Positions 37,431-60,992 of a stretch of DNA of 61,235 nt are shown here, piece after piece. The stretch is from Patescibacteria group bacterium (lineage in GTDB: Bacteria > Patescibacteriota > Minisyncoccia > Phycocordibacterales > UBA1550). The position numbers were made by a program, and so were the translations under genes. The notes below the pieces were generated by a model, which saw only the letters and a list, made by a program, of their open reading frames with translations, was not told where the DNA came from and did no database searches. The stretch's first letter is position 1, and the number at the start of each line of letters is the position of its first letter. The stretch covers positions 12,035 through 73,269 of the forward strand of contig JBBTUT010000010.1 of assembly GCA_038063615.1 (NCBI GenBank), read 5' to 3'.

Positions 37431-37452
37431 AGATTCTCCATACCCTCTTCAA

Positions 37453-37490
37453 AACCCACCTGCCGATTGTTCGGTTCAGGACTTACGGTT
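37453..37490 (-). promoter_or_regulatory. 5' UTR stem-loop U1, copy a
   Basis: minus strand AACCgtaagtCCTGaaCCGAacaaTCGGCAGGtgGGTT just upstream of SD. Confidence 0.7.
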
Positions 37491-37512
37491 CATATTTTTT
37501 TGAAAGAACTAA

Positions 37513-37563
37513 TCTGTTTCGTCTTTTCAGACTCATCAGTCGAGATACGCATCTCGATACAGA
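37513..37563 (-). ncRNA. Type III hammerhead ribozyme (HHR-a)
   Basis: minus strand TCTGTA|TCGAGA-tgcgta-TCTCGA CTGATGA GTCT-GAAA-AGAC GAA ACAGA; cleavage after A (complement of 37558). Confidence 0.85.
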
Positions 37564-37686
37564 GAGCATTTTTACGCGTGCTCAGCGCGGATGGTTTTGT
37601 CTCGGTTCATCAACCGGAGGGCTCTGCTTCCCTTGGGCTCCACATTTTATCATCAAGAAAAAGTGGACAAAGACTCTAGGATTTAG
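37564..37686 (-). repeat. Module M (structured domain 5' of the hammerhead), copy a
   Basis: about 125 nt shared with 38921, 40958, 48082, 50510, 49421; helices TTTGTC/GACAAA, TCCAC/GTGGA, AGGG/CCCT, CGGTT/AACCG, GAGCA/TGCTC. Confidence 0.75.
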
Positions 37687-37740: not shown

Positions 37741-38106
37741 TTAGCGGTATCGAGAACCCGCTGAACAGCTGCAAGGATAGCTTCCCTCAGGTCCTTCTGC
37801 ACTATACTCTGTGACCCTGCCAGTGTCATCGCATGCTCTACATTTTGGCTCTTTGATTCTTTCTACTGTTTCTTTGTGCGCTTGTGCTATTAGTCGCGCA
37901 AGGTCATTCAGGGTAATTTCGCCCTTACCGTTGCATAGATTACAAACTTTTGCTACCTTGCCGGTGCCGCGACATTCATTGCAGGAAGTACTTTCCCCAT
38001 AATATCTGCTATCTTTATAGACATCTACTTTGCCCTTCCCGTAGCACTTCCGACACTCTACAAGGAATTTCCCTTTACCTTCACAAGCTTCGCACATCTC
38101 TTTCAT
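37741..38106 (-). CDS. DnaJ-CR-type zinc-finger repeat protein
   Basis: 121 aa from MKEMCEACEGKG; five CxxCxGxG-like units. Confidence 0.75.
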   Translation of the reverse strand: MKEMCEACEGKGKFLVECRKCYGKGKVDVYKDSRYYGESTSCNECRGTGKVAKVCNLCNGKGEITLNDLARLIAQAHKETVERIKEPKCRACDDTGRVTEYSAEGPEGSYPCSCSAGSRYR

Positions 38107-38447
38107 GTCCCCTCCTTTTTTATTTGTTCCTCTGCTATTTTGCCCGTTCCCCTGCATTTACTGCAATGCCTAATCCATGACTGCTCTTTTATAACATGGT
38201 CATTATACTGAGAGCTATTAGCAAGCTCTATTCCCCAAACATGACCCGTTCCTTCGCATTTATCACATTTGCACCTCTGGCACACAATCGCCCCTTCACC
38301 GCTTCCGCCACAATCACAACACTTCTCTGTCCAACATTCACCAAAACCATCTTTATGGTAGGTCTTTCCTTTCCCGTTGCACTGCCTACAAACTTTCACT
38401 ATCTCGATCTCGCCTACACCCTTGCATTCATCACATATTCTCGCCAT
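38103..38447 (-). CDS. DnaJ-CR-type zinc-finger repeat protein (paralog)
   Basis: 114 aa; CDECKGVG, CRQCNGKG, CCDCGGSG, CDKCEGTG, CSKCRGTG; stop overlaps the next start (ATGA). Confidence 0.75.
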   Translation of the reverse strand: MARICDECKGVGEIEIVKVCRQCNGKGKTYHKDGFGECWTEKCCDCGGSGEGAIVCQRCKCDKCEGTGHVWGIELANSSQYNDHVIKEQSWIRHCSKCRGTGKIAEEQIKKEGT

Positions 38448-38502
38448 AATTTTCCCTCCTTCGCCTAAAGTCCGTCGGCTTTTATTTGTTTTTCAAAGAT
38501 CT

Positions 38503-38583: not shown

Positions 38584-38869
38584 GAAGGTTTTTAGAGAAC
38601 CTTCCGAAACTCTTACCACTATGAGAGTTTTTTACGAGACTCTCTTAAACTCGGCATAGTTCCATGCGCTCCGACCGCGCGGTCCCACTGTCGGACAAAG
38701 AAAGATGACTGACTTGCTACCATGCTTGGCAAGCTTCATCCTCTCTGGGCTAAGTTTGATACCGACGACAGTTAAGTGCTTAGCTAAATTTCTGTCGTGG
38801 GCCGCTGATCGAGCGGCAAACTCAAGAGCTTATTTATTTTCCTCCTTTCAAGTCTTTGCAAAGAACTCA

Positions 38870-38920
38870 TCTGTTTCGTCTTTTAAGACACATCAGCGCA
38901 GACACTCATCTGCGGACAGA
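38870..38920 (-). ncRNA. Type III hammerhead ribozyme with A9U core substitution (HHR-c)
   Basis: minus strand TCTGTC|CGCAGA-tgagtg-TCTGCG CTGATGT GTCT-TAAA-AGAC GAA ACAGA. Confidence 0.7.
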
Positions 38921-39040
38921 GAGCATTTTTACGCATGCTCAGTGCGGATGATTTTGTCTCGGCTCATCAACCGGAGGGCTCTGCTTCCCTTGGGCTCCAC
39001 ATTTTATCATCAAGAAAAAGTGGACAAAGACTCTTTAGGA
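38921..39040 (-). repeat. Module M, copy c
   Basis: near-identical to 37564..37686. Confidence 0.75.
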
Positions 39041-39071: not shown

Positions 39072-39275
39072 TTATTTTTGCCAAAAAGAGCACCTGGTAC
39101 AGGTAGCGGCTATCCGTTCAGCAGTCCAAAGATGTGGGTTCTTGATTGCGCGTACCCAGCGTGTACATCTTTTGCGAGCATCACGCTTGAATAACTCAGC
39201 CTTGCCACAACCATCAAACGGTTGAAGGGATTTTACGGTCCCCTTTCCACAAGTTACAGCTCCCCAATCCATCAT
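39072..39275 (-). CDS. Small Cys-containing protein
   Basis: 67 aa; GAGGAGG SD; first gene after the 39403 promoter. Confidence 0.55.
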   Translation of the reverse strand: MMDWGAVTCGKGTVKSLQPFDGCGKAELFKRDARKRCTRWVRAIKNPHLWTAERIAATCTRCSFWQK

Positions 39276-39402
39276 ATTTCCTCCTCGTTTTAAGCCCGTC
39301 GGCTGTTATTTGACTCTTTCAAAGAACTGCTTGTTTCCTCCTTGAAGAAAGGTACCATACCTGCAATATAGTTGCTGAGGTTTTTAGATGATTTGTGGTA
39401 AA

Positions 39403-40850: not shown

Positions 40851-40906
40851 AGTTTCTATTTTTTAATTATCACTTTTTTGAAAATAATTTTCAATGTCTT
40901 TAAAAA

Positions 40907-40957
40907 TCTGTTTCGTCTTTTCAGACTCATCAGCGCAGACACTCATCTGCGGACAGA
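40907..40957 (-). ncRNA. Type III hammerhead ribozyme (HHR-d)
   Basis: minus strand TCTGTC|CGCAGA-tgagtg-TCTGCG CTGATGA GTCT-GAAA-AGAC GAA ACAGA. Confidence 0.85.
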
Positions 40958-41080
40958 GAGCATTTTTACGCGTGCTCAGTGCGGATGATTTTGTCTCGGT
41001 TCATCAACCGGAGGGCTCTGCTTCCCTTTGGCTCCACATTTTATCATCAAGAAAAAGTGGACAAAGACTCTAGGATTTAG
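40958..41080 (-). repeat. Module M, copy d
   Basis: near-identical to copies a and c. Confidence 0.75.
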
Positions 41081-44172: not shown

Positions 44173-44226
44173 CTCTCTACCCCCATTCGTTTAAAGCCCG
44201 TCGGCTATATTTTTTTGAAAGAACAA

Positions 44227-47209: not shown

Positions 47210-47228
47210 ATGCACCTCCACAAACTCA

Positions 47229-47267
47229 AACCCACCTGCCGATTTCTCGGTTCAGGACTTACGGGTC
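47229..47267 (-). promoter_or_regulatory. 5' UTR stem-loop U1, copy b
   Basis: aacccacctgccgatttctcggttcaggacttacgggtc. Confidence 0.7.
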
Positions 47268-47286
47268 GTATTTTTGAAAGAACAAA

Positions 47287-47633: not shown

Positions 47634-48030
47634 TCTTCCACCTCCATGCGTTTCCAGTCCGCCGACCATAATTTTGGGATTCTCTTTCAAATCCCTTTCA
47701 AAAAATTCAAGTTGTTAAAATCTTTGAAAGGGAGAGGATGCGATATTTTGCATCCTCTCTGTGCAGTGTCATCTTATATCGCGTAAGATGACTTGGTTGA
47801 GACCCTCGCCTGTGACGATAGATTTTCTGATAGCTAGTCAGAATAATCACACAAGCAACCGGTACGGTCTCACCCATAGGTTTTTTTTGTGAGGTCTAAC
47901 GACCTCATTGAGTTTCCTATAACTCTCTCCGTGACGTACTTTGGGGCTGCACACCCTCCCTGTACCACAACATCTTCCAAAAAAATCATTTCAAAAAGAT
48001 GTTGTGGCGCAGGGAATTTTTAAAAGAACA

Positions 48031-48081: not shown

Positions 48082-48300
48082 GAGCATTTTTACGCATGCT
48101 CAGTGCGGATGATATTCATTATCGGCGTTGAACTTACCGTGACAAACGCTCAAGTTTGTCAGGCAATAGGTTATTCTCATCAGCTTACCCTATTGCCACC
48201 AATTTTTACCGGACTGGCGCCGTGTCTATGATTTTGTCTCGGTTCATCAACCGGAAGGTTCTGCTCCCTTTAGGCTCTCCATTTTTTAAAACGGGGACAA
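48082..48300 (-). repeat. Module M, copy f, carrying a ~117-nt insertion (48114..48230)
   Basis: flanks match the other copies with compensatory AAGG/CCTT for AGGG/CCCT; the insert holds GGCAATAGG/CCTATTGCC and TGACAAAC/GTTTGTCA hairpins. Confidence 0.7.
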
Positions 48301-48316
48301 ATCAAACTAAGCGTCG

Positions 48317-49420: not shown

Positions 49421-49512
49421 GACATTTTGTCTCGGTGTGTCAACCGGAGGGCTCTGCTTCCCTTTGGCTCCACATTTTATCATCAAGAAAAATGTGGATA
49501 AAAACTCTAGAC
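49421..49512 (-). repeat. Module M, copy h (subtype 2, no hammerhead attached)
   Basis: matches 50528..50626; CGGT-tgacac-ACCG replaces CGGTT-gatg-AACCG. Confidence 0.7.
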
Positions 49513-50037: not shown

Positions 50038-50088
50038 TTCTCCCCCTCCTCGTTTCGAGCCCGTCGGCTATTTTTTTGAAAGAACAAA

Positions 50089-50509: not shown

Positions 50510-50626
50510 GAGAACGCGGTTTTTGTCGCGGTCTCGACATTTTGTCTCGGTGTGTCAACCGGAGGGCTCTGCTTCCCTTGGGCTCCACATTTTATCATCA
50601 AGAAAAAGTGGACAAAAACTCTAGGA
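50510..50626 (-). repeat. Module M, copy g (subtype 2)
   Basis: hairpin next to the ribozyme replaced by GAGACCGCG/CGCGTTCTC; the rest matches the family. Confidence 0.7.
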
Positions 50627-50879: not shown

Positions 50880-50899
50880 ACATCCTCCTAAAATTTCAG

Positions 50900-50937
50900 A
50901 ACCCACCTGCCGATTGCTCGGTTCAGGATTTACGGTT
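50900..50937 (-). promoter_or_regulatory. 5' UTR stem-loop U1, copy c
   Basis: aacccacctgccgattgctcggttcaggatttacggtt. Confidence 0.7.
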
Positions 50938-50958
50938 CATATTTTTTGAAAGAACAAA

Positions 50959-51922: not shown

Positions 51923-51942
51923 AATAACCTCCATAATTTCAG

Positions 51943-51980
51943 AACCCCCCTGCCGATTTCTCGGTTCAGGATTTACGGTT
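51943..51980 (-). promoter_or_regulatory. 5' UTR stem-loop U1, copy d
   Basis: aacccccctgccgatttctcggttcaggatttacggtt. Confidence 0.7.
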
Positions 51981-52003
51981 CATATTTTTTTTGAAAGAAC
52001 TAA

Positions 52004-59846: not shown

Positions 59847-59920
59847 TTGGTGCGGGCAGGGAGAATCGAACTCCCGTCAAAGGATTGGAAATCCCTTATT
59901 CTACCATTAAACTATGCCCG
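59847..59920 (-). tRNA. tRNA-Gly (anticodon UCC), CCA encoded
   Basis: GCGGGCA acceptor stem, anticodon loop TTTCCAA, GGGAGTTCGATTCTCCC T-arm, 3' ACCA. Confidence 0.9.
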
Positions 59921-59990
59921 CTTAACCTCGCGCTATCATAGCAGTTGGGCACGACTTTCGCAACGCTGTTGAAGTCAAGCTTCAACAGTC

Positions 59991-60056: not shown

Positions 60057-60992
60057 ATGTCGCAAAATATTCCCGCTACCACGCTCGGCTCGTTTGCACG
60101 ACAATTTCTCGAGTATTTGGAGATCGAGCGCGGACGAAGCTTGAAAACTATTCAAAACTACGAGCACTACCTCACGCGCTTTCTCTCTGCGAGCGGGGCA
60201 AAAGAGCCGGGTGATATTACCGACGAGGTGATGCGCTCATTTCGCTTGTGGCTCAACCGCCAAGAAGCGGGCGTGCGCGAGGGTCGCAATACGACACTCA
60301 AAAAGAAAACGCAGAACTACTATCTCATCGCGATTCGCAGTTTCCTCAAATATTTGCGTAAACGCGGTATTGAATCATACGCTCCCGAGCGCATTGAGCT
60401 TGCAAAGGTTGCCGAACGCACAATCGACCTTTTGAGCCCGCAAGATTTGCGCCGACTTCTTTCCGCGCCCGACGGCGACACGGTAAAAGCGCTCCGCGAC
60501 AAAGCGATTCTCGAACTTTTCTTTTCCACCGGACTTCGCCTCTCCGAACTATGTTCGCTTTCTCGCGACATTGACCTTTCGCGCGATGAAATATCCGTGC
60601 GGGGCAAAGGCGAAAAGGTGCGCGTGGTCTTTATTTCCGACGATGCCAAAACTGCGATTACCGCATATTTAAAAAAGAGAACAGATATGGACGATGCGCT
60701 TTTCGTGCAAGAGAGCAGGAACACAAGCAAAGACGGCTCCATCCGCCTCACTCCACGCTCCATCGAAAGAATGGTGAAGCACTATGCCACCAAGGCGGGC
60801 ATTATGGACAAAGTCACTCCCCACATCCTCCGCCACAGCTTCGCCACCGACCTCCTCTACAACGGCGCCGACATCCGCTCCGTACAAATAATGCTCGGCC
60901 ACGCCAACATTTCCACCACGCAGATCTACACCCATGTGACAGATAGTGAGCTACGCAATGTTCACAAGAAATTTCACAGCAAGGGGCGGTAA
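60057..60992 (+). CDS. Tyrosine recombinase, XerC/XerD-like
   Basis: 311 aa; HILRHSFATDLL...GHANISTTQIYTHV catalytic region. Confidence 0.9.
   Translation: MSQNIPATTLGSFARQFLEYLEIERGRSLKTIQNYEHYLTRFLSASGAKEPGDITDEVMRSFRLWLNRQEAGVREGRNTTLKKKTQNYYLIAIRSFLKYLRKRGIESYAPERIELAKVAERTIDLLSPQDLRRLLSAPDGDTVKALRDKAILELFFSTGLRLSELCSLSRDIDLSRDEISVRGKGEKVRVVFISDDAKTAITAYLKKRTDMDDALFVQESRNTSKDGSIRLTPRSIERMVKHYATKAGIMDKVTPHILRHSFATDLLYNGADIRSVQIMLGHANISTTQIYTHVTDSELRNVHKKFHSKGR

Follow-up and report, generated by a model that had tools for sequence, protein, structure and literature searches.

The DNA stretch analyzed here, called the window, is 61,235 nt long and is from a Patescibacteria group bacterium (GenBank assembly GCA_038063615.1, contig JBBTUT010000010.1, positions 12,035–73,269 of the forward strand). 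A low-GC section at 36–52 kb is an accessory gene array of small minus-strand open reading frames (ORFs), most of them with no assigned function. Six copies of an RNA module, termed M, are present between these genes, together with five type III hammerhead ribozymes. M is a real, conserved and structured RNA module that is independent of the hammerhead and previously undescribed.

The six copies of M are direct repeats on the minus strand, as a preliminary description of the region had proposed. They form an 88-nt family in a repeat search, align with one another, and score 84–95 bits with R1, a covariance model built from M sequences and used to score both the copies and their homologues. All six are intergenic, are in the same orientation as the genes and are located 12–85 nt past the stop codon of the upstream gene. 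The M cores and one insert are as follows.

37593–37674, minus strand: M core of copy a, 95.0 bits with R1, also found by the alignments and as a four-way junction in the minimum free energy (MFE) fold
38950–39031, minus strand: M core of copy b, 94.4 bits
40987–41068, minus strand: M core of copy c, 95.3 bits
48111–48229, minus strand: insert of copy d, 120 nt between core and linker, with three hairpins and an AUCAU repeat at the flanks
48230–48304, minus strand: M core of copy d, 83.7 bits, a divergent type 74% identical to copy a
49423–49505, minus strand: M core of copy e, 87.6 bits, with neither linker hairpin nor hammerhead
50538–50619, minus strand: M core of copy f, 94.0 bits

Copies a, b and c are 98% identical to one another in the core, and identities among copies a, b, c, e and f are 90–98%. 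Copy d has a short loop on helix P2, its helix P3 is AAGG/CCUU, and by identities and fold its nearest relative is on a groundwater contig (locus L145, below). The AAGG/CCUU variant had previously been assigned to the copy at 49.4 kb, labeled f in the preliminary description; it belongs to the 48-kb copy. Copy e is followed about 30 nt further on by AAGGAGG and a GUG start codon. Within the full copy-d unit, M folds as its own domain. The copy-d insert has CUGAUGAG in one of its loops, yet does not match the hammerhead model; it may be a small inserted element.

The five type III hammerheads are on the minus strand and match Rfam model RF00008 with E values of 1e-8 to 4e-6; only one exceeds the gathering score, and the other four fall 2–7 bits short of it. 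They have the CUGAUGA and GAAA cores, the GUH triplet and three stems, of which I and II are closed by loops. Stem I is a 7-bp hairpin that is fully compensated between copy types, stem II carries a GAAA loop and stem III is short.

37511–37565, minus strand: hammerhead a, 43.6 bits, E 8e-7
38868–38922, minus strand: hammerhead b, 41 bits, E 4e-6
40905–40959, minus strand: hammerhead c, 46.8 bits
48029–48083, minus strand: hammerhead d, 44.7 bits
50457–50511, minus strand: hammerhead f, 49.9 bits, above the gathering score

The core of hammerhead b has CUGAUGUG instead of CUGAUGAG (A9 to U), and the same change is found in a second contig (L141, 2907–2961); this hammerhead may be slowed or inactive. 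A Bacillus velezensis plasmid (NZ_AP024502.1, 37929–37982) has an unannotated sequence with 81% identity, over 54 nt, to the hammerhead part of the unit but not to M.

The preliminary description treated about 125 nt directly 5' of each hammerhead as one conserved domain. The part that is universally conserved is a core of about 75–83 nt; the remaining 30 nt or so are a linker, which is a separate and exchangeable module. The location directly 5' of a hammerhead holds for five of the six copies, the 49.4-kb copy running into a ribosome-binding site instead, and in the 48-kb copy the adjacency is not immediate, as the 120-nt insert (48111–48229) lies between the core and the linker and hammerhead. 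The hairpin on the ribozyme side was correctly recognized, and is either GAGCA/UGCUC or GAGACCGCG/CGCGUUCUC with one C.U mismatch. The linkers are the following.

37564–37592, minus strand: linker of copy a, CGCG..CGCG interleaved with GAGCA..UGCUC
38921–38949, minus strand: linker of copy b, same type as copy a
40958–40986, minus strand: linker of copy c, same type as copy a
48082–48110, minus strand: linker of copy d, same type as copy a
50510–50537, minus strand: linker of copy f, a different hairpin at the same position, GAGACCGCG-ACAAAAA-CCGCGUUCUC

The two interleaved stems of linkers a–d have loops CU and UAAAAA, the latter being an A-rich third loop, and represent a candidate H-type pseudoknot. 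At the fourth position of stem 1, copy a has a G-C pair, copies b and d have A-U, and copy c has A.C. Because its 3' strand directly adjoins stem III of the hammerhead, the linker terminates the upstream cleavage product. That M plus linker would form the 3' end of the upstream fragment, as proposed earlier, follows from the geometry of a type III hammerhead.

The three modules group the copies differently: (a, b, c), (e, f) and (d) by the M core, (a, b, c, d) and (f) by the linker, and (a, d) and (b, c, f) by the hammerhead. M, linker and hammerhead have therefore been recombined, and M is an independent unit, autonomous of the hammerhead. A pairing of the P3-loop GCAGA with hammerhead stem I was considered and rejected; it works only in copies b, c and f and is not conserved.

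The fold of M was analyzed with 14 distinct sequences, which aligned without difficulty; 19 pairs were counted. The consensus is a four-helix junction of 72–83 nt (75–83 nt in the window copies). Helix P1 consists of UUUG/CAAA, possibly lengthened by an invariant GUC/GAC. P2 is a hairpin of 5–7 bp with a loop of 9–19 nt, and the junction between P2 and P3 is G(C/U)C(C/A/U)A. P3 is AGGG/CCCU with the cap n-AGCAGA-n; a single C separates it from P4, which is CGG(U)/(A)CCG with a loop of 4–9 nt and is followed by AGA. The helices named in the preliminary description, AGGG/CCCU and CGGUU/AACCG, are real and represent P3 and P4. Approximately 30 junction and loop nucleotides are invariant. M also carries a CCUCC run that is similar to an anti-Shine-Dalgarno sequence.

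Standard pairs make up 85–94% of the pair cells. Six or seven of the 19 pairs have two-sided changes, compared with 0–2 when the partners are slid by 1–3 columns, and none of 500 shuffles reaches these values. By the criterion of compensatory changes, M is a structured RNA. Support is strongest for P2, moderate for P3, provided by variation in loop length for P4, and weak for P1. In P2 there is an A-U to C-G change that divides the sequences 7 to 7, and a C-G to U-A change; the third pair is C-G, A-U, C.A or A.C, and the sixth, examined by eye, is G-C, G.U or A-U. P3 has two changes from G-C to A-U and one G.U pair. Three pairs of P4 are invariant and the fourth varies, with loops that differ in both length and sequence; the change from CGGUU to CGGU, previously listed as sequence variation within a kept helix, is the loss of one pair and not a compensation. 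The P3-loop positions flanking GCAG are A.G, G.A, A-U, U-A or A.A, a range that points to a non-canonical pair. Copy d and L053, the two lineages with A-U at pair 44-57, are also the only ones with U at junction base 41, the others having C or A there; these two events hint at a base triple between 41 and 44-57.

MFE folds give the four-way junction in most homologues, with ordinary z-scores (+0.55 to -2.7). A plain stabilizer of the 3' end, one of the roles suggested earlier, is a poor fit to ordinary folding energies and to about 30 invariant loop and junction bases. The P2 and P4 loops range from 4 to 19 nt, and the length differences in M are not multiples of three; the conservation is therefore not protein-coding. 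Neither the junction nor the P3 loop varies between lineages in which the DNA identity of the flanking protein genes is only 65–77%.

In the window-type copies (a, b, c, e and f) the P2 loop is expanded (e.g., 37640–37662, minus strand) and has the sequence TTGTCC-15 nt-TGATAAAAT, which resembles an extended -10 promoter. If it were active, transcripts would begin inside M and the leader would then be removed by the hammerhead. The spacing is far too short in other lineages.

Homologues of M were recovered by exact-pattern scans with filtering by sequence context and by a look-up guided by the Xer recombinase protein; the metagenome scan used one exact pattern. The first pattern scans gave mostly chance matches, and true homologues were chosen by sequence context. 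M is found at eleven loci outside the window, in groundwater metagenome contigs and genome bins, with 60–95 bits to R1. They include the following.

L141, contig from Hainich groundwater well H41: two M copies with hammerheads; same genome type as the window
L145, another H41 contig: M of the copy-d type
L053, Parcubacteria bin
L271, Kaiserbacteria bin
L293 and L294, Saccharibacteria-labeled bins: contigs of 235 kb and 102 kb
L295, Moraniibacteriota bin
L223, Bdellovibrionales-labeled bin: 116-kb contig
L273, Nitrospirales-labeled bin: 3-kb contig
L305, metagenome contig: reached through the Xer protein look-up

The preliminary description held that M would lose its standing if covariation were absent or if it were simply a recent duplication. 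Covariation is present, as is conservation in other genomes. The constant co-occurrence of M with hammerheads, for which it proposed a check, is not seen: most of the outside loci have no hammerhead. Rfam finds none in L223, L271, L273, L293, L294 and L295, and the M of L305 is also without one. L053 is the only outside locus of the bin set with a hammerhead-like sequence (CUGAUGAG...GAAAC, with a weak stem II), and it has two hairpins in place of the linker. Of eight related genomes sampled, seven have no M within 10 kb upstream or downstream of the Xer gene, and one further M was gained by this survey. The distribution of M is patchy.

The window shares synteny with L271, L293, L294 and L295: the Fic-HTH, Xer and TrmB genes have 65–77% DNA identity and the M regions 83–93%; M is therefore better conserved than the adjoining coding DNA. 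The homology block of these four loci includes M and an upstream ORF of 25 codons, and the downstream gene differs between genomes. M is therefore a 3' component of the unit upstream of it. The ORF encodes MLVQKNGRWYYYSW(S/T)TGYVAIKPPR, has a ribosome-binding site, is about 55 nt upstream of M, and shows mostly synonymous differences. It is located as follows.

L293, 7187–7264: 25-codon ORF
L294, approximately 1655–1732: 25-codon ORF
L271, approximately 2530–2610: 25-codon ORF
L295, at the edge of the locus: 25-codon ORF
L305, upstream of 15263: 25-codon ORF

The 3' part of this ORF (GGUACGUAGC) can pair with a conserved GUUACGUAGC in a hairpin before M. The ORF and hairpin could represent a leader-peptide-like arrangement or a dual-function RNA. 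A back-translated pattern of the 25-residue peptide gave only the loci already known, and a protein search with the small basic protein encoded after M in L293 gave no match.

The gene junctions of the 36–52 kb array have a common architecture. Each has a GC-rich hairpin (T1), UCUUUAU, an AU-rich hairpin (H2) and UAGAGAU-UUUGUUCUUUC-AAAAAA. Junction boxes of the two kinds are located as follows.

52000, 50955, 50085, 49054, 47283 and 44224, minus strand: junction boxes with a plain hairpin
50456, 48029, 38866 and 37509, minus strand: junction boxes with a hammerhead

The hammerheads are on the same lower stem as the plain hairpin (UCUGU/ACAGA compared with UCUUUA/UAGAGA) and are followed by the same GUUCUUU box, and at these junctions M plus linker replaces T1. 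Hammerhead and ordinary hairpin thus look interchangeable at gene junctions. Loci L293, L295 and L271 have, downstream of M, a GC-rich hairpin, a hairpin of the H2 type and the box; L294 has hairpins and a similar box there. Blocks of homology between genomes begin and stop at the junction boxes, in the manner of cassette-like shuffling. The GUUCUUU box was considered as a promoter and rejected; in L293 it is about 12 nt from the ribosome-binding site.

Two repeated leaders are also present in the array. A 5' untranslated region (UTR) element, AUAUGAACCGUAAGUCCUGAACCGAnnAAUCGGCAGGUGGG, which includes the hairpin CCUGAACCGA..UCGGCAGG, follows the junction box at four junctions (37445–37500, 47221–47276, 50892–50947 and 51935–51990, minus strand). 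A small AGCCGACGGGCU hairpin is found right before the ribosome-binding site at 38450–38488, 39274–39312, 44176–44214, 47637–47675 and 50039–50077.

The window is chromosomal Patescibacteria DNA and not phage. It encodes EF-G, EF-Tu, RecJ, ComEC, PilB/PilC, PGK, trigger factor, ClpP and RNase Y, and its sequence is also present on a 130-kb contig from well H41 (0.1 µm filter fraction). A Xer-like recombinase (60057–60992, plus strand) has about 85% protein identity to bins of Yonathbacteria, Paceibacteria and Parcubacteria. Together with the housekeeping genes, this identity places the host in the Patescibacteria (candidate phyla radiation). The best NCBIfam model for the recombinase is 'site-specific tyrosine recombinase/integron integrase (XerA)'. 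Its gene adjoins tRNA-Gly (59848–59921, minus strand), the only tRNA that ARAGORN finds in the window, at the edge of the variable region. Synteny around this gene extends to four other bins; L293 and L294 carry it in opposite orientations relative to M. A phage origin was rejected, as INPHARED gave no megablast or blastn match and housekeeping genes are present. In IMG/VR, four scans aimed at M gave no true match, and a scan for the hammerhead core was also without a match. Between M copies a and b there are two overlapping paralogous ORFs (37741–38157 and 38103–38447, minus strand) with DnaJ-type CXXCXGXG zinc-finger repeats, which only weakly resemble a phage protein family of Q-like antiterminators (PHROG).

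With cmscan run on the 16-kb region, on M alone and on the M of L293 with its flanks, M has no match to any Rfam 15 family at E<=10. The failure to match twister, pistol, hatchet and HDV-like ribozymes, reported earlier, is confirmed with the corresponding models at the same threshold and extends to twister-sister and the hairpin ribozyme. The drum, skipping-rope, DUF3800-I and FuFi-1 models also do not match M at E<=10. The hammerhead model does not match M even when 135 nt are searched; GAGCCCA is present where the CUGAUGA core would be. Several likenesses that were considered (an SRP-like GGAAGCAG, the L11-binding site, a twister-like CCCAAG and the hairpin ribozyme) are not supported by any Rfam match. 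A tRNA-like M, which would be recognized by RNase P as punctuation, was rejected: the junction between P2 and P3 is long, the P4 loop is 4–9 nt, and neither ARAGORN nor the Rfam tRNA model (RF00005) matches M. Literature searches that combined the hammerhead with Patescibacteria or the candidate phyla radiation found nothing relevant.

The role that we tentatively prefer for M, at somewhat less than even confidence, is one of sequence-specific recognition. M would be a 3'-UTR domain that is read by a conserved factor, or would be released as a small RNA. The transcription of M, cleavage in vivo and binding of a factor by M are all proposed from sequence. M would be transcribed with the genes, placed before a structure that ends or cuts the transcript. 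Here the ending structure would be the linker hairpin or pseudoknot and the type III hammerhead. Cleavage after GUH, 5' of stem I, would leave an upstream RNA that ends in M plus linker with a 2',3'-cyclic phosphate, and a downstream mRNA that begins with the hammerhead body and a 5'-OH. The linker hairpin would act as an exonuclease block, a function assigned to the linker because its hairpin is terminal and M is not unusually stable. A trans-acting factor, protein or RNA, would then read M and set the fate of the upstream RNA. Alternatively, M would be released as a small stable RNA. In favor of recognition, the core of M is maintained in copies a, b, c, e and f despite full replacement of hammerhead stem I, with compensation, and an exchanged linker in copy f.

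Several points weigh against this role. P1 consists mostly of invariant A-U pairs with one G-C, and pairs poorly in L053. In copy e, M is part of a 5' UTR, with the ribosome-binding site about 30 nt away. No candidate for a binding protein is consistently encoded near M. The structures that follow the constant M are varied: pseudoknot and hammerhead, hairpin and hammerhead, overlapping alternative hairpins in L293, and a bare ribosome-binding site. A constant core with varied downstream structures is also the pattern of riboswitch aptamers. Proximity to hammerheads is also the signature behind the discovery of twister-sister, pistol and hatchet.

A possible though rather doubtful reading is that M is a catalytic or sensing RNA of a new class, i.e., a self-cleaving ribozyme that echoes the hammerhead with an extra helix and a different core, or an aptamer that gates the hammerhead. 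The ribozyme form is unlikely. A new class of small self-cleaving ribozyme would act with the hammerhead either to excise a short RNA or to cut the polycistronic transcript a second time. The size and conservation of M, with variable hairpin loops and about 30 invariant bases, are typical of small ribozymes, and M adjoins hammerheads in an accessory array, the context through which twister-sister, pistol and hatchet were discovered (cited in PMC5737381). The outline of M, 5'-UUUGU-C/hairpin/7-nt GAGCCCA/hairpins/AG/ACAAA-3', also parallels that of the type III hammerhead, 5'-UCUGU-C/stem I/CUGAUGA/stem II/GAA/ACAGA-3'. However, no ribozyme model matches M, the CUGAUGA core is absent, and in most of the other genomes M is followed by terminator-like hairpins. 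The 3' terminators of drum, skipping-rope, DUF3800-I and FuFi-1 were judged to be at odds with self-cleavage, and none of the three motifs tested cleaved (PMC5737381).

Quite unlikely is an aptamer for a metabolite, second messenger or protein, for which the expression platform would be the hammerhead here and a terminator/antiterminator or ribosome-binding site elsewhere. A constant core with diverse downstream structures agrees with it, as does the CCUCC anti-Shine-Dalgarno-like run. In both L293 and L295 an alternative pairing, CACCACC..GGUGGUG, overlaps the hairpin GGUGAGUG..CACUCACC and has one strand in common with the hairpin that comes next. M is also a multi-copy motif before unrelated genes, and second-messenger riboswitches are found in this arrangement. 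However, no conserved alternative pairing was found between P1 of M and the hammerhead or linker, and P1 is conserved in sequence and does not covary freely. In addition, there is no consistent class of downstream gene, and M travels with the upstream ORF, not with the downstream gene.

A function at the DNA level, as a promoter, operator or cassette recombination site, is very improbable and has been largely refuted. The TTGTCC-15 nt-TGATAAAAT sequence within P2 of the window-type copies could represent a promoter, but the TTGTC-to-TAAAAT spacing is 7–9 nt in other lineages, where no promoter is therefore possible. The C.A mismatches of P2 are G.T pairs on the opposite strand; the four helices with compensatory changes and the G.U pairs on the sense strand nevertheless fit RNA. 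A cassette-like array with homology breakpoints at conserved boxes and a tyrosine recombinase nearby also speaks for a DNA element. An integron was considered and rejected. The recombinase reaches 130 bits on TIGR02249, where the cutoff is 265; it is best matched by Xer, and is of the housekeeping Xer type, 85% identical across Parcubacteria. The junction box GTTCTTT is unlike the attC core GTTRRRY, M is only optional at the junctions, and it has four helices while attC is a single imperfect hairpin.

That M is a tertiary folding partner which activates a minimal hammerhead, as first suggested, is hardly credible and also largely refuted. M is upstream of all five hammerheads in the window, where a short stem III is abutted by the linker hairpin. 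However, M is without a hammerhead in at least seven other loci (L223, L271, L273, L293, L294, L295 and L305) and in copy e, the hammerhead of copy d is intact despite the 120-nt insert, M types and hammerhead types are shuffled relative to each other, and with a 7-bp stem I and a GAAA loop on stem II the hammerheads are not obviously minimal. The notion that M is the functionless end of a recently duplicated segment, to which the 98% identity of copies a, b and c might point, is refuted and has negligible probability, as M is kept in eleven outside loci in bins of several phylum-level labels, is more conserved than the neighboring coding DNA, and has adjoining hammerhead stems and linkers that have turned over.

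Hammerheads that flank single genes have been described in prophage-like or integrase-proximal bacterial regions, with an implied role in processing a long transcript into RNAs of gene length (Perreault et al. 2011, PMC3088659). The window has a similar array: several co-oriented type III hammerheads separate small genes that vary in identity, and a tyrosine recombinase gene is nearby. It is unlike the published array, in which no conserved upstream domain was described, in that here each hammerhead has M and a linker hairpin and the location is a Patescibacteria chromosome. An upstream RNA that ends in M plus linker agrees with the published view of gene-length cutting (PMC3088659). The presence of hammerhead and plain hairpin on the same lower stem at equivalent junctions provides a concrete handle on the purpose of bacterial hammerheads.

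Twister-sister, pistol and hatchet are ribozyme classes that came to light in searches of the surroundings of hammerhead and twister ribozymes (Weinberg et al. 2015, cited in PMC5737381). M resembles them in that it is small, highly conserved and structured and is located beside self-cleaving ribozymes in accessory neighborhoods; the four-helix junction and the conserved bases are different, and the models of these classes do not match at E<=10. A ribozyme separates RNA contexts in the RiboJ-type insulators, and natural aptamer-ribozyme tandems are represented by glmS and by c-di-GMP-II with a group I intron. The separation of RNA contexts and the conserved domain directly beside a ribozyme are features shared with M. 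The accessory hairpin of RiboJ, however, is downstream of the cut, whereas M is upstream and there is no sign that M controls the hammerhead. If an aptamer were found to gate the hammerhead, it would be the first natural allosteric hammerhead, and a new catalytic or sensing class would be one restricted to bacteria of the candidate phyla radiation.

To our knowledge, no conserved partner domain has been described for bacterial hammerhead gene arrays. Motifs with a profile such as that of M have repeatedly proved to be ribozymes, riboswitches or specific partners of proteins. The hosts of M are all ultra-small, poorly studied bacteria, and Rfam 15 has no entry for it; with a length of about 80 nt and a set of natural variants, M is directly testable in vitro. 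The closest kind of known motif is represented by drum, skipping-rope, DUF3800-I and FuFi-1, a group of orphan motifs that are highly conserved and carry 3' terminators (Weinberg et al. 2017, PMC5737381). Similar to M, these are complex and strongly conserved, are rarely in a clear 5' UTR and are followed by a stable hairpin or terminator. M differs from them in having no Rfam match or consistent protein gene, in its occurrence in Patescibacteria-type bins only, and in its fusion to hammerheads here. The hammerhead array is of a known kind, and the independently conserved RNA domain within it is a component not previously described.

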